Shown here in pieces: positions 1-4,217 of a DNA stretch of 4,909 nucleotides. A program made the position numbers and the translations under genes. Each line of letters starts with the position of its first letter. Position 1 is the stretch's first letter. The notes beneath the pieces were generated by a model, which searched no databases, was not told the origin of the DNA, and worked only from the letters and a program-made list of their open reading frames with translations. Source of the DNA: a virus (Duplodnaviria > Heunggongvirae > Uroviricota > Caudoviricetes); IMG/VR virus record IMGVR_UViG_2703718815_000009. One strand, given 5' to 3'.

Positions 1-1230
1 ATGAGCAGAGCACTTAACAAACTGAGCGATACACAGCTGAGGAAAATCAACGGCACACCCGCCCAAAAAACAGCCTTTCTTAATGACGGTGGAAACCTGA
101 GCGTCAGGCATTCAACCAGCGGCCTTTTAACCTGGTATTTCACTTACAGGGCCGGAACGGGAAGGGGGGCACCACCGGAACGCATTAAGCTGGGAAATTA
201 TCCTGATCTGAGCCTGAAATCAGCCAGGGAAAAAGCCGCCCAGTGTCGCGCATGGCTGGCTGAGGGGAAAAATCCACGTCATGAGATGAATTACACCGTA
301 CAGGAAGCGTTAAAGCCGGTAACGGTTGGCGATGCGCTCACCTACTGGCTTGAGTCGTACGCAAAGGAAAACCGTGTGGATTATGACCCACTGAAAAAGC
401 GGCTAAATAATCACGTAATACAGCACATTGGCTCTATGCCGCTGGATAAATGCGAGCTACGGCACTGGCTGGCCTGTTTTGATCGGGTGGCAAAGCAAGC
501 CCCTGTTTCCGCCGGGTTCCTGCTACAGACATGCAAACAGGCGCTTAAGTTCTGCCGGAAGCGGCGCTATGCAATCAGCAACGTTCTTGATGATATGAGT
601 GTGGCTGACGTTGGGAAAAAACCGGATATAAGCGAACGTGTCTTAAGCAATAAAGAACTGGGCGAATTATTGCAGGCACTGGACAAAAAAATATTTTCCC
701 CTTACTACGTCGCACTAATCCGCCTCCTGATTGTTTTCGGATGCCGGACAGTAGAACTGAGGTTATCGGAGATCGGCGAGTGGGATTTTACCGAAATGCT
801 CTGGACTGTTCCGAAGGAGCACAGCAAAACGAAGGTAGCCATATTCCGGCCCATACCGGAAGCGATACTGCCGTTCGTCACGCAGCTGGTGGAGCAGAAC
901 AGGCACACGGGCTTATTGCTGGGGGAAGTGAAACAGGAAACCAGCGTATCGCAGTACGGCAGATTGGTGCACAGGAGGCTTAAACACCCTCACTGGTCAT
1001 TGCATGACATCCGGCGCACCTTTACAACGATGCTGAACGATTTAGGCGTGGATCCTCACGTCGTGGAGCAGCTTACAGGACACCAGATGCCAGGGATGCA
1101 ACGAGTCTATAATCACTCCCGTTATCTGGATGCGAAACGCAATGCGCTGGATATGTGGACGGAGCGGTTAGGGATACTGGCGGGAGCACATGAAAACGTA
1201 ACCACGCTACCAGTAGCCAGAAGAAAATAA
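1..1230 (+). CDS. int: Tyrosine recombinase / site-specific integrase, P4-type phage integrase family
   Basis: 409-aa ORF ending at TAA 1228-1230. The C-terminal region has the tyrosine-recombinase catalytic pattern: HDIRRT (His-x-x-Arg box), then GHQMPGMQRVYNHSRY about 30 aa later carrying the second His and candidate nucleophile Tyr. The N-terminus (LSDTQLRK...DGGNLSV...GLLTWYFTYRAG) fits the arm-binding domain pattern of P4-like integrases. The ATG sits on the first base of the window, so the true start could lie upstream. Confidence 0.9.
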   Translation: MSRALNKLSDTQLRKINGTPAQKTAFLNDGGNLSVRHSTSGLLTWYFTYRAGTGRGAPPERIKLGNYPDLSLKSAREKAAQCRAWLAEGKNPRHEMNYTVQEALKPVTVGDALTYWLESYAKENRVDYDPLKKRLNNHVIQHIGSMPLDKCELRHWLACFDRVAKQAPVSAGFLLQTCKQALKFCRKRRYAISNVLDDMSVADVGKKPDISERVLSNKELGELLQALDKKIFSPYYVALIRLLIVFGCRTVELRLSEIGEWDFTEMLWTVPKEHSKTKVAIFRPIPEAILPFVTQLVEQNRHTGLLLGEVKQETSVSQYGRLVHRRLKHPHWSLHDIRRTFTTMLNDLGVDPHVVEQLTGHQMPGMQRVYNHSRYLDAKRNALDMWTERLGILAGAHENVTTLPVARRK

Positions 1231-1605: not shown

Positions 1606-1794
1606 GTGTTAAGCACAGATCGCTTTATACGTGAAAAAGAATGTCAGCAACTTACAGGCCTGAGCCGCTCATGTCGGTATCGCCTGGAGAAGACTGGACA
1701 ATTCCCATCACGGCGTAAACTCGGCGGTCGTTCCGTTGGCTGGTCTTTATCCGAAGTTCTGGCATGGAAGGACAGCCGCGAGGCAGTTCACTAA
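1606..1794 (+). CDS. alpA: AlpA-family phage regulatory protein (small winged-HTH activator/excisionase-like)
   Basis: 62-aa ORF with GTG start at 1606, preceded by an AAAGGGGG Shine-Dalgarno at 1594-1601. The translation LTGLSRSCRYRLEKTGQFPSRRKLGGRSVGWSLSEVLAW matches the AlpA-family pattern (TG-x-SR-x3-Y ... FP ... KLG-x-RSVGW ... SEV-x2-W). Its position directly after a P4-type integrase is typical. Confidence 0.85.
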   Translation: MLSTDRFIREKECQQLTGLSRSCRYRLEKTGQFPSRRKLGGRSVGWSLSEVLAWKDSREAVH

Positions 1795-2056
1795 TCAGGC
1801 TGGCGGCGCACCGCCGCCACCCATCCACTAACACAGAGATCTAACCATGAATACTGGATATACGCCCGAACAGGGGCGGGGCTTCGTTCGTCCTGGTGAA
1901 ACTAAAAAGCCATGTTATCGGGTATTTTCAGGCATAAAAAAAGCGGCCCCGATAAGGAACCGCCTTTCTGAACAATTAACCTGCTGCGAAAAAAATGGAT
2001 CAGTGCAGGGGAATTATATCAACCGTGTGGCGAAGCGCCACAATTGCCGGATAACA

Positions 2057-2088
2057 GGCAAAACAAAGGCGACCGCAAAAGGGTCGCC
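2057..2088 (-). terminator. Rho-independent terminator for the minus-strand transcription unit
   Basis: On the minus strand: GGCGACC (stem), CTTTTGC (7-nt loop), GGTCGCC (stem), followed by TTTGTTTTGCC. On the plus strand the same hairpin is followed by AGTGGGAAC with no U tract, so it is oriented to stop leftward transcription from the 2691 gene. Confidence 0.6.
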
Positions 2089-2154
2089 AGTGGGAACAAG
2101 GGAAAACAAAAGCATCACCAACAATGCCACATTTGCGGCTGGTGGGCAATGCAA

Positions 2155-2328
2155 TCAGTCTGGTTCAGTTCGTTGCCATACCTGCAATGAGCGCTTTTCC
2201 CTGTACTCTTTAAGGAATTGCTCAAGGGCAAAAGCACATGGCGCGAATCTTTCTGATTCATGCTCTATCTTTCTGCGTCGTCTTTTCCGTGTCGGTGATA
2301 ATGTTTTGGTCAATTCTTTATCGGTCAT
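2155..2328 (-). CDS. Hypothetical small arginine-rich protein (57 aa), doubtful; may instead be a 3' UTR
   Basis: ORF MTDKELTKTLSPTRKRRRRKIEHESERFAPCAFALEQFLKEYREKRSLQVWQRTEPD. ATG at 2328-2326 is preceded by AGGA with a 7-nt spacer. It lies 57 nt downstream of the regulator gene and about 70 nt upstream of the minus-strand terminator, so it is inside the predicted transcript. Against: it uses AGA/AGG/CGA Arg and ATA Ile codons that the neighbouring genes avoid, and no domain is recognisable. Confidence 0.3.
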   Translation of the reverse strand: MTDKELTKTLSPTRKRRRRKIEHESERFAPCAFALEQFLKEYREKRSLQVWQRTEPD

Positions 2329-2385
2329 TGTGTTGTCCTGCATAGCAATGCGCCGTAATACCTTACACCACGGCGCTGGTGATGG

Positions 2386-2691
2386 TTACTCCTGCTCTTT
2401 GGCCTTGCGACGCTGGAGTTCTTCACGCGCGACGGTGACGAGTTGCCCGATCTCCTCGGCAGCTTTAACTCCGATTTTTTCCACCTGCGCCAGCGCATCG
2501 AGCGAAGAAACCAGGGGGTTTTCTCCGCTTCCTTCTGCCTGGCGGCGGGCGATCTCACCGCGCATGGCGGTTACTATGAATCCGGCGTTGCTTTCGCCGT
2601 CCAGTTTTACGGATTCCATGCCTTCAAAAGCATCATGTGGGATACGAATTGAAATCTGTTTTGATTTGTCGTTGATAGTGTTTTTTGCCAT
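2386..2691 (-). CDS. Small putative DNA-binding regulator, possibly ribbon-helix-helix (Arc/MetJ-like) with a charged helical C-terminal tail
   Basis: 101-aa ORF starting at the ATG at 2691-2689, preceded by a strong AGGAGA Shine-Dalgarno with 6-nt spacer (the upstream in-frame ATGs lack an RBS). Codon usage is good. The N-terminus KQISIRIPHDAFEGMESVKLDGESNAGFIVTAMRGEI has the strand-helix-helix spacing of Arc-type repressors (compare Arc FNLRWPREVLDLVRKVAEENGRSVNSEIYQRVM), a fold-level inference only. The gene abuts an operator-like region with inverted repeats. Confidence 0.7.
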   Translation of the reverse strand: MAKNTINDKSKQISIRIPHDAFEGMESVKLDGESNAGFIVTAMRGEIARRQAEGSGENPLVSSLDALAQVEKIGVKAAEEIGQLVTVAREELQRRKAKEQE

Positions 2692-2713
2692 GTGCATTCT
2701 CCTAAACAAAAGA

Positions 2714-2789
2714 TGTGATTCAGTATACACAAAAAAGAATCACAAAAAATACTTGACCTGTGATTCAGTTGATTTTAATTTAAATCACA
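2714..2789. promoter_or_regulatory. Divergent promoter/operator region with two copies of TGTGATT-N17-AATCACA around a TTGACC -35 element
   Basis: TGTGATTCAGT occurs identically at 2714-2724 and 2759-2769. Inverted partners GAATCACA (2737-2744) and AATCACA (2783-2789) lie at the same offset, giving two ~31-bp sites 45 bp apart. Rightward promoter candidate: -35 TTGACC 2753-2758, 17-bp spacer, -10 TAATTT 2776-2781. Leftward -10 candidate: TATACT (reverse complement of 2722-2727). The second operator overlaps the rightward promoter spacer. Confidence 0.6.
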
Positions 2790-2814
2790 CCTCAGTAAGA
2801 GGATGTAAACGACA

Positions 2815-2848
2815 ACGCCCCGAACTGTTTGCGGCAGTAGCGGGGCGT
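2815..2848 (+). other. GC-rich stem-loop in the 5' leader of the rightward operon (ACGCCCCG ... CGGGGCGT, 8-bp stem, 18-nt loop)
   Basis: Read directly as a perfect 8-bp inverted repeat, with additional CTG/CAG pairing possible inside the loop. There is no downstream U tract, so it is not a terminator; it lies between the predicted promoter and the RBS at 2867-2870. Confidence 0.4.
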
Positions 2849-2878
2849 CTAACCAAACCGTTAAACGAGGTAACGATT

Positions 2879-3223
2879 ATGGCTGGAACACAGCATACCC
2901 AAACTCACCCTAAATTTATATACACCTTCCTGGCGGTGCACCGTGATTGCATAGCTGACGGTAAAAGCACTGTACACGTAGCCGCTGATACGCTGGTTGA
3001 TGCCTGCGAGATGCTCAATGACATGGGTTATATCTCGGCAACATGGAAAGGGCGCGAAGAAAACACGCTGTTTATTCAGAAATGCGAAAACAATTTTATC
3101 TGGCGTTTTATCGCCCTGAGCACGGCACAACCGCGCGTGATTACCATTGAGGCCACCAGCGAACAGGAAGCACGCCAGCGTGATGGTATTCGCCGCCCGT
3201 ATTCGTCAGGGGGTACGCCATGA
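2879..3223 (+). CDS. Hypothetical protein (114 aa), first gene of the rightward operon
   Basis: ATG at 2879 preceded by GAGG (2867-2870) with 8-nt spacer; stop TGA 3221-3223 overlaps the next start (ATGA). This is the only credible part of the 458-aa frame 1847-3223 in the ORF track. No domain recognised. Confidence 0.7.
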   Translation: MAGTQHTQTHPKFIYTFLAVHRDCIADGKSTVHVAADTLVDACEMLNDMGYISATWKGREENTLFIQKCENNFIWRFIALSTAQPRVITIEATSEQEARQRDGIRRPYSSGGTP

Positions 3224-3480
3224 GCAATAACACCCGTCCGGACGCAGTCGCCGAAGCAATCAAAACACTGATTGATGCGCTGATTGATATTTCTGTTATC
3301 GCAGACAAGGCGCATAAGCACGCCACCAGTGAAACAGAATATGCCGGGGCTTTCGTTCCTCACTCACTGGCTGTTATGCAACTTAGTGCTGATATGGCAC
3401 TGAATGAGGCTAAAGCCATCCTGATTGCTGATTGTGAAAATGGGGGGGGGGTATGCGTGATGATCGTTTTAATGCCCTGA
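3220..3480 (+). CDS. Hypothetical protein (86 aa); 3' end runs through the G10 tract
   Basis: ATG at 3220 overlaps the upstream stop (ATGA); GGGGG at 3208-3212 gives an RBS at 7-nt spacing. Alanine-rich and predicted helical. The last 13 codons (GGGVCVMIVLMP) lie after the homopolymer and look like out-of-frame read-through, so the true C-terminus is uncertain. Confidence 0.55.
   Translation: MSNNTRPDAVAEAIKTLIDALIDISVIADKAHKHATSETEYAGAFVPHSLAVMQLSADMALNEAKAILIADCENGGGVCVMIVLMP
3442..3451. repeat. G10 homopolymeric tract at the junction of two overlapping ORFs
   Basis: Ten consecutive G read directly at 3442-3451, encoding GGG of the upstream ORF and ending 1 nt before the ATG (3453) of the next. 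G11 would fuse the two ORFs in frame (...ENGGGGMRDDRF...); G9 would end the upstream ORF at GGGYA-stop. Confidence 0.95.
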
Positions 3481-3686
3481 AACAGGAATTTGATGGCGCA
3501 CCGGAAGATACAGATATTGCGCTGTTATGTGTTGCTGACATGGTAAAAGCTGCAAGTTTTTTACTGGAAACCGCCGAACATTCAGGAACGGGTAGCGATA
3601 TTCTCAATATTGCGTCGGACTATGCGGAATATGTGGCAGAGGCGCGTTACAGAAGAAAATTCCCGGAGAATGTAAGCCATGTGTGA
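3453..3686 (+). CDS. Hypothetical protein (77 aa); possibly the C-terminal half of a frameshift-split or slippage-controlled gene
   Basis: ATG at 3453 immediately after the G10 tract; the 5' G residues of the tract (3442-3445) could act as a Shine-Dalgarno at ~7-nt spacing. Stop TGA 3684-3686 overlaps the next start (ATGTGTGA). Acidic and alanine-rich, no domain recognised. Confidence 0.5.
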   Translation: MRDDRFNALKQEFDGAPEDTDIALLCVADMVKAASFLLETAEHSGTGSDILNIASDYAEYVAEARYRRKFPENVSHV

Positions 3687-3917: not shown

Positions 3918-4217
3918 ATGAAAAAGAAAATTTCTGGCTTTACTGCCAGCGGCCCCGTTCGGCCTGAAATCCGCCCCGGCGATATTTTCCGGGATAACTA
4001 TGGCGGCACGGTAACGATTAAAGGCATTGCCGGACGGTGCGTTACTTACCGCCGTGATGGGTACGGCTATGACTGCGTGATGCCTGTTTATCAGTTCCGG
4101 CGTGATTTTTCACTGATACAGGCCACGCCATGCAAACAGCCCACCAGCAACGCAAAGGCACGGGCAAATATTCAGAAAATGAAAAACATGATTAACGCAT
4201 TCAGGGGCACAAAATGA
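3918..4217 (+). CDS. Hypothetical protein (99 aa), basic
   Basis: ATG at 3918, 5 nt after the upstream TAA, with a weak GGGAA RBS; stop TGA 4215-4217 overlaps the start of the next gene (ATGA). No motif recognised. Confidence 0.6.
   Translation: MKKKISGFTASGPVRPEIRPGDIFRDNYGGTVTIKGIAGRCVTYRRDGYGYDCVMPVYQFRRDFSLIQATPCKQPTSNAKARANIQKMKNMINAFRGTK

Follow-up and report, generated by a model that had tools for sequence, protein, structure and literature searches.

The closest described parallel to the locus considered here is the immunity region of the satellite phage P4. PMC10111431, summarising Forti et al. 1999, places a constitutive promoter inside eta and presents Kil as a truncated Eta, and it describes translation of Eta as stopping termination so that an upstream late promoter reads through. 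Helper induction is reported to bring AlpA-dependent transcription from upstream (PMC6092414; PMC11773190), and the global repressor of Gram-negative phage-inducible chromosomal islands (PICI) has been described as unclear (PMC6092414). The stretch analysed here, referred to as the window, comprises 4,909 nucleotides of the Caudoviricetes record IMGVR_UViG_2703718815_000009 of IMG/VR and is the left end of a P4/PICI-like island. Its minus strand carries a cassette made up of a predicted ribbon-helix-helix (RHH) gene of the YlcI/YnfO family, a 57-aa open reading frame (ORF) and two terminators, and the whole of this cassette lies antisense within a long plus-strand ORF. We consider it likely that the cassette is the immunity or repressor module of a P4-like (PICI-type) satellite, nested antisense in an eta-like leader.

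An original prediction, made from the letters of the window, had singled out a minus-strand gene with an AGGAGA ribosome-binding site and an Arc-like N-terminus as a DNA-binding regulator and possible repressor; the gene is where it was placed (Table 1), and comparison with its relatives supports the function proposed for it. Residues 9-50 of the protein match NCBIfam NF041551 (YlcI/YnfO) at E=3.7e-18 and 65.3 bits, the family model being an N-terminal one of 42 residues with a curated cut-off of 30 bits, and phrog_6522 is matched over the full length. A threshold of E<=0.001 yields more than 200 homologues, from Escherichia, Salmonella, Citrobacter, Yersinia, Serratia, Edwardsiella, Enterobacter, Klebsiella, Erwinia and Photorhabdus, with one more found in a Pseudomonas by a separate genome scan, and their alignment has invariant positions, conservative replacements and a clean 4-residue in-frame indel. 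Structure prediction, which had been recommended as a check, gave an AlphaFold2 (AF2) model with a predicted local distance difference test score (pLDDT) of 80, consisting of an extended segment (residues 12-18), two helices (19-28 and 35-52), a linker and a long helix (61-100). The strand-helix-helix segments of the N-terminal domain stand at pLDDT 82-89 in this monomer model, where an intersubunit sheet is not visible. RHH proteins of the Arc/MetJ/CopG type combine strand-helix-helix topology with a G-x-S/T/N turn, and YlcI has both, the turn ahead of its second helix reading G32-E-S34.

A Foldseek search against the PDB was uninformative. The best structural neighbours are the RHH-type antitoxins MazE/EndoAI of B. 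subtilis and MazE4 of M. tuberculosis, which like YlcI join an RHH domain to an extended C-terminal helix. A weak Hef helix-hairpin-helix-like match in a PDB profile search (E=0.018) was dropped because AF2 models the matched region as a single continuous helix. PADLOC returned no defence-system match for YlcI or for the 57-aa product, and we found no functional literature on the YlcI/YnfO family. In the family alignment, the DNA-binding N-terminus and the C-terminal helix recombine independently of each other: beta-strand regions that differ widely stand before an almost unchanged stretch of residues 46-101. Such a pattern suggests a common oligomerisation surface or a common target surface for anti-repressors. 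Short, 59-aa forms that have the RHH part and lack the C-terminal helix occur in two loci with tandem cassettes (L041 and L031) and, in L094, before the 57-aa ORF.

The main reason for our commitment to a repressor lies in the 187-bp divergent region between this gene and the rightward operon. It contains two putative operators, O1 and O2, set in an identical 45-bp register, which bears out the inverted-repeat operator of the original prediction. The TATACT enclosed by O1 is the putative -10 of the leftward promoter, and O2 overlaps the spacer and -10 of a putative rightward promoter, P_R, which sits within the long plus-strand ORF. A strict promoter scan of the window did not call P_R; TTGAC is kept at its -35 position in all genera compared. 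The same layout of operators and promoters recurs across 15 lineage groups from seven genera, and across these groups the sequence of the half-site changes together with the beta-strand of YlcI, with identical pairs recurring in different genera: TGTGATTC accompanies the strand SKQISIRIP (E. coli, Yersinia), GTGTTTCA the strand SQLTTVRVP (E. coli, Photorhabdus) and GTAAGAC the strand SQSLTARIP (E. coli, Enterobacter), and further motifs accompany further strands. RHH proteins read repeated or palindromic operators through their beta-strand, and this sequence comparison suggests that YlcI would do likewise. In the O157:H7 island, YlcI is replaced by an unrelated 63-aa Arc/HicB-like RHH ORF that comes with a repeated motif of its own. 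Taken at the level of sequence, the covariation of half-site and beta-strand together with this gene replacement is the signature of interchangeable immunity modules, and YlcI would accordingly be named a sequence-specific repressor of the rightward replication operon. The Arc-like ORF of the O157 island (L003 3250-3441, minus strand) is left unannotated in RefSeq. An 8-bp hairpin is also present in the P_R leader of the window, at 2815-2848, upstream of the Icd-like ribosome-binding site.

The cassette had been described as lying between alpA and the rightward operon. Its position is indeed there, but a simple "between" does not hold, as the plus frame is open from 1832 to 3223 across it, and the ORF that contains the entire cassette had been missed. 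Over 1832-2878 there are 0 stops in this leader frame versus 21 and 16 in the other plus frames, and the last 114 codons of the ORF are the Icd-like gene. The yardstick for comparison was the plus frame that shares the third codon positions of YlcI. Of 88 loci with a YlcI homologue, almost all have this frame open from end to end of the gene; the open stretch typically runs for 300-700 codons and in most loci is in phase with the Icd-like gene. Stops were counted on both sides of YlcI in 20 lineage representatives: in the 180 nt to the right of its ATG the leader frame has 5, versus 107 and 101 in the other frames, and in the 300 nt past its stop codon 15, versus 62 and 175. The non-genic parts are stop-free in about 17 of the 20; these counts are not formal probabilities, because the lineages share descent. 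Where two RHH and small-ORF cassettes stand in tandem, the frame is still open, over 805 codons in L041 and 650 in L031. In Photorhabdus, Pantoea, Xenorhabdus and Pseudomonas the leader ORF begins 4-8 nt before the stop of the preceding plus-strand gene, and in the last three it ends 4-11 nt past the start of the next gene; most lineages have an ATG with a good Shine-Dalgarno sequence after alpA or the preceding gene. The leader frame is kept stop-free across many bacterial genera and is open in nearly all lineages.

The genes nested in the leader keep to a common register with it. The small ORF of the window shares third codon positions with the plus ORF, as do the Arc-like RHH gene and the small ORF of the O157 island with the plus ORF called there. 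In L031 the starts of YlcI, of a short RHH form and of a 75-aa ORF are mutually in register, and coordinate arithmetic places these genes, and the lipoprotein-like ORF of L031, in the leader plus frame. Apart from the mirror of YlcI and the Icd-like end, no part of the plus-strand translation is conserved. RefSeq is inconsistent over the region (L003 2807-3550, L002 2807-3400, L093 1304-1751), with some genomes calling the 57-aa minus-strand ORF and others calling the plus ORF as a 247-aa hypothetical protein or as an "Icd-like, incomplete" pseudogene; antisense nesting explains why automatic annotation differs between genomes here.

The P4 ORF at 8168-8812 (minus strand) begins within the end of vis/ORF88, the alpA homologue, and an Icd-like domain forms the C-terminus of Eta (NF033153, E=1e-20); the P4 kil start region aligns with the start of the Icd-like gene of the window (E=9e-5). 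By these homologies, P4 eta has its counterpart in the plus-strand ORF 1847-3223, whose end is a nested kil/Icd-like gene. As a positive control, Rfam found the C4 (CI) and isrK (seqA) RNAs inside P4 eta; a scan of the whole window at E<=1 found no match, and therefore no C4/IsrK-type immunity RNA is present in it.

Downstream of the repressor gene, the minus strand continues through a GC-rich hairpin into what the comparison of islands reveals as a variable slot. The hairpin is 86% paired, counted over the cells of 15 variants, and includes G.U pairs that are valid only on minus-strand RNA; its covariation is not above shuffled controls. It is retained behind different RHH genes and before different cargo or none. 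The slot on its 3′ side holds the 57-aa ORF in 47 loci, a 75-aa ORF in 4, a lipoprotein-like 50-aa ORF in 3 and no ORF in 15, and the 57-aa and 75-aa products share only an FALE-F--KY motif (hhalign E=3e-4). L028 and L043 cleanly lack both the hairpin and the small ORF, and in six other genera a terminator directly follows the YlcI homologue, the regulator standing alone. The small ORF itself, which the original prediction had picked out 3′ of the regulator for its RKRRRRK stretch, is found behind four different RHH genes; tblastn of the small ORF against phage genomes gave no match. Its AF2 model, the second of the structures that had been asked for, is one helix with a disordered, basic, Arg-rich N-terminal tail. 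In the window, the two genes share a frame and are separated by one TAA and 19 sense codons, for which reason a fusion or readthrough product was considered; it was rejected, the 173-aa homologue P0107 being an N-terminal extension and not a fusion. A further motif, ATTTGCGGCTGGTGGGCAA (minus strand GCCCACCAGCCGCAAAT), is conserved downstream of the slot at 2128-2150, and it persists in loci from which hairpin and small ORF have been deleted as well as in one from Enterobacter.

The intrinsic terminator that had been noticed after the small ORF is there (t1, z=-4.6), and a second, stronger one (t2) follows it; read in plus orientation, both are without a downstream U-tract. Between them, an extended -10-like sequence, TTGATATAAT (2013-2022, minus strand), could be the source of a transcript some 70 nt long that stops at t2. 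Of the 94 fetched loci, 9 contain the sequence GGTTGATATAAT, and wherever the orientation of the locus is known it is on the YlcI strand; Rfam has no match for the putative short transcript (region 1936-2022).

Whether the small ORF is coding at all was reasonably doubted in the original prediction, but the evidence now leans the other way and the ORF is probably a gene. The competing view, that it is a 3′ untranslated region held open only as a by-product of the constraint on the opposite-strand leader frame, keeps a minor but real chance. It accounts for an ORF whose third positions coincide with those of the plus ORF, a frame in which stops are scarce to begin with (6 per 349 codons) and in which the plus frame equally demands that indels be in-frame; the N- and C-terminal parts of the small ORF are without amino-acid constraint, the family is tiny (32 clusters, all from E. 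coli or Shigella where the source names the organism, and 9 representatives among 1.8 billion proteins), and rare frameshifted alleles (P0015, P0032) stand beside the two loci that lack the ORF cleanly. What tells against it is that each of the 34 complete homologues from the fetched loci is uninterrupted and keeps an ATG, preceded at 9-13 nt by AGG in 16 of 16 distinct upstream variants, and that selection appears to follow the minus-strand reading. The ratio of nonsynonymous to synonymous polymorphism (pN/pS) across homologous islands, a comparison that the original prediction had called for, is 0.49 overall and falls to 0.29 in the core ERFAPCAFALEQFLKEY, the lowest of six frames; replacements in this block score +0.47 in the small-ORF frame versus -1.30 in the mirror frame, and the block coincides with a conserved 20-aa helix of pLDDT about 90. 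The distant 75-aa relative has the same motif, and the 261-bp segment 2140-2400, with the small ORF and the 3′ end of YlcI, is matched in 1223 of 5426 complete E. coli genomes. If coding, what does the product do? The original prediction had offered a type II toxin-antitoxin-like pair. In such a pair the RHH protein would be antitoxin and autorepressor and the 57-aa protein the toxin, and this now appears very improbable: searches of Pfam, NCBIfam and PADLOC matched the small ORF to no toxin or other family, the modelled protein is a highly basic single helix without a toxin fold, the genes are 58 nt apart with a hairpin between them and do not overlap, many YlcI islands have no small ORF or other cargo in its place, so that the two do not consistently occur together, the regulators of the six other genera stand alone, and the operators on the promoter of the replication operon fit an immunity repressor. 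A dedicated partner of the RHH repressor or of its mRNA, for instance through an Arg-rich motif that binds the hairpin or as a co-repressor, and not free cargo, is a further alternative. The repeated association with four RHH genes that are unrelated or divergent, in every case behind that hairpin, speaks for it, as do the Arg-rich disordered N-terminus adjoining the helix and a hairpin whose pairing is kept through minus-strand G.U pairs; we nevertheless find it unlikely, given the many islands, and all other genera, that do without the small ORF, the covariation at the level of shuffled controls and the persistence of the hairpin where the slot has other cargo or nothing. On the models and comparisons at hand, the small ORF would best be seen as an accessory or partner gene co-expressed with the repressor, not a toxin.

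Several observations weigh against the larger account of a repressor module nested in a translated leader. The -35 of the leftward promoter is not recognisable, the leader start of the window, 53 nt after alpA, has a weak Shine-Dalgarno sequence (AGAGA), and the leader frame is broken or out of phase in L008, L009, L043, L072 and L086-L090. Synonymous shuffling of YlcI, moreover, leaves its mirror frame open with P of about 0.2-0.5 per lineage. YlcI contains no tyrosine, which alone makes an open mirror frame fairly likely, and one might therefore suppose that the long plus ORF is a compositional accident or, conversely, the only real gene, with YlcI as its shadow; PGAP does sometimes annotate the plus ORF in place of the minus-strand genes. 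Both forms of this supposition strike us as hardly credible. Because a tyrosine-free YlcI often leaves the mirror open, the strongest evidence for maintenance of the frame comes from the non-genic stretches and from phase, and large indels, exchanges of cargo and tandem duplication have left the frame open, in a leader with coupled starts and ends. A shadow, for its part, is at odds with amino-acid replacements that are conservative in the YlcI frame (mean BLOSUM62 +0.16) and not in the mirror frame (-0.93), with 8459 sites that alter only the mirror protein versus 1663 that alter only YlcI, and with the strong ribosome-binding site, the terminator, the confident fold and the matching operators that go with YlcI. 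Within ylcI, T precedes CAN codons in 2 of 317 cases versus 16% overall, a suggestive avoidance that comprises too few independent substitutions to stand alone.

The arrangement can be put together as a switch. In the quiescent island, YlcI would act as an RHH repressor on the two inverted-repeat operators: occupancy of O2, because this site overlaps the rightward promoter, would shut P_R of the operon for the kil/Icd-like gene, DUF4222 and helicase-primase, and occupancy of O1, because it overlaps the repressor's own promoter, would limit the synthesis of YlcI. The leftward transcript is predicted to run through the conserved hairpin into the accessory slot and to end at the two tandem terminators, so that the basic single-helix protein would be made from the same mRNA as the repressor. 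Upon helper induction, AlpA-dependent transcription from upstream would cross the cassette on the plus strand, where translation of the eta-like frame may, by analogy with P4, protect the RNA from Rho and prevent premature termination. The scarcity of stops in this one frame across lineages lends such a role indirect support. The translated leader transcript could then supply the replication operon independently of the repressed internal P_R, and plus-strand transcription would collide or interfere with that of ylcI. Leader translation from alpA-driven transcripts would in this way serve as an anti-termination and convergent-transcription switch that overrides the repressor.

We are evenly divided over a wider proposition, namely that Enterobacterales satellites swapped the RNA immunity of P4 for protein repressor cassettes lying antisense in a translated eta-like leader, that selection keeps this leader of 350-800 codons stop-free, and that the YlcI/YnfO family is the missing master repressor of Gram-negative PICI-like elements. 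The amino-acid sequence of the leader appears unconstrained over the YlcI overlap, the part in which this was tested. A leader that must remain stop-free would force nested genes, here four kinds of RHH gene and three kinds of small ORF, into the antisense frame that shares its wobble positions. Neither a P4-type leader nor an RHH repressor is new in itself; as far as our searches reach, what appears undescribed is the nesting of one antisense in the other, together with the conservation of that nesting across genera and the frame rule.

As for the setting, the satellite hallmarks within the window are an integrase, alpA, DUF4222 and an AAA_25/RepA helicase, the window stopping short of any late genes, and homologous islands adjoin roxA in E. 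coli chromosomes. The E. coli strains E203449 and JE86-ST05 are among those that have the island, and E203449 matches the segment 2140-2400 at 100% identity. The Kil/Icd-like gene is the first of the P_R operon and is followed by several small ORFs; tblastn of its product against phage genomes gave no match. This Icd-like protein has 114 aa versus about 66 aa in most related islands, and it seems to hold a hydrophobic motif twice (FIYTFLAVHR and FIWRFIALST). The ORFs 3220-3480 and 3453-3686 are two halves of one 154-aa family, phrog_2512, and meet at a G10 tract (3442-3451) whose length in related loci varies between G4 and G11; the tract may act as a slippage switch by which the gene is fused or split, or it may be a sequencing artefact. 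Directly 3′ of the alpA stop lies a GC hairpin without a U-tract (1801-1817, z=-4.2).

Table 1. Features of the cassette and its surroundings; positions are those of the window unless a locus is named.
Feature	Position	Strand	Remarks
Integrase	1-1230		Tyrosine recombinase, as annotated in homologous islands
alpA (counterpart of P4 vis)	1606-1794	+	PF05930, E=2.7e-18; immediately upstream of eta-like ORF
Eta-like leader ORF	1847-3223	+	458 codons; contains the whole cassette, antisense
Intrinsic terminator t2	1936-1964	-	Stem and U7; folding free energy -19.8 kcal/mol
Intrinsic terminator t1	2058-2088	-	Stem 2088-2068, T-tract 2067-2058
57-aa Arg-rich small ORF	2155-2328	-	phrog_21027, E=1.5e-15
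Shine-Dalgarno sequence of small ORF	2336-2339	-	AGGA, 7 nt before ATG
Conserved GC-rich RNA hairpin, also module junction	2350-2376	-	Between repressor stop and small-ORF ribosome-binding site
YlcI/YnfO-family RHH repressor gene (putative function)	2386-2691	-	101 aa and stop; ATG at 2691
Shine-Dalgarno sequence of repressor gene	2698-2703	-	AGGAGA, 6 nt before ATG; read from sequence
Operator O1 (putative)	2714-2744		TGTGATTC-N15-GAATCACA; encloses conserved TATACT, 2722-2727 (minus strand)
Promoter P_R (putative)	2753-2781	+	-35 TTGACC 2753-2758, -10 TAATTT 2776-2781; read from sequence
Operator O2 (putative)	2759-2789		TGTGATTC-N16-AATCACA
Nested Kil/Icd-like gene	2879-3223	+	In-frame, own ribosome-binding site; NF033153, E=7e-13; BLASTP to P4 Eta/Kil start region, E=9e-5
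DUF4222 gene	3918-4217		Rightward operon
AAA_25/RepA-type helicase	from 4214		Rightward operon
Leader ORF over tandem cassettes, L041	1968-4385	+	Window-like orientation
Leader ORF over tandem cassettes, L031	2492-4444	+	Window-like orientation

The nested cassette gives the YlcI/YnfO family a testable function, that of an operator-specific repressor, and makes YlcI a candidate for the Gram-negative PICI global repressor. It also presents a case, conserved over several genera, of genes lying antisense within a frame whose openness seems to serve translation itself and not the protein made, and hence a natural system in which translation-coupled anti-termination, convergent transcription and the rules of antisense overprinting come together.

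Among known regulators, Mnt and Arc of the P22 immI region and the F-like TraM proteins are RHH proteins with a C-terminal oligomerisation helix, and they have no significant sequence similarity to YlcI. In the immI region of P1 and P7 (c4-icd-ant), work by Biere and colleagues in 1992 and Riedel and colleagues in 1993 reportedly found that translation of the ORF heading the operon, Icd, governs downstream transcription; an Icd-like ORF heads the operon there as in the window, whereas control in P1 is by the c4 antisense RNA, a type for which the Rfam scan gave no match here. Stl and Rpr, the master repressors of pathogenicity islands in Staphylococcus aureus (SaPI) and of Gram-positive PICI, resemble the YlcI cassette in being divergent repressors over a satellite replication operon with an accessory slot adjoining (PMC6092414), but they belong to an unrelated protein family, and in the window int and alpA point the same way as the replication operon, with the repressor nested in antisense. 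The P4 immunity region shares with the window an alpA/vis homologue followed by a long leader ORF, a separately translated Kil/Icd-like C-terminal part, a promoter within the leader (P_LE in P4) and an immunity determinant embedded there. In P4 the immunity factor is an RNA (C4/CI) with its isrK/seqA target within the leader, on the same strand as eta, elements that the window lacks; in their place, the opposite strand of the window bears a protein repressor gene, a small ORF and two terminators, accompanied by putative DNA operators, in a leader of 458 codons versus 214 in P4. Because the order and homologies of eta and kil match, we read the window as having the architecture of P4, with a protein cassette in place of the CI RNA.

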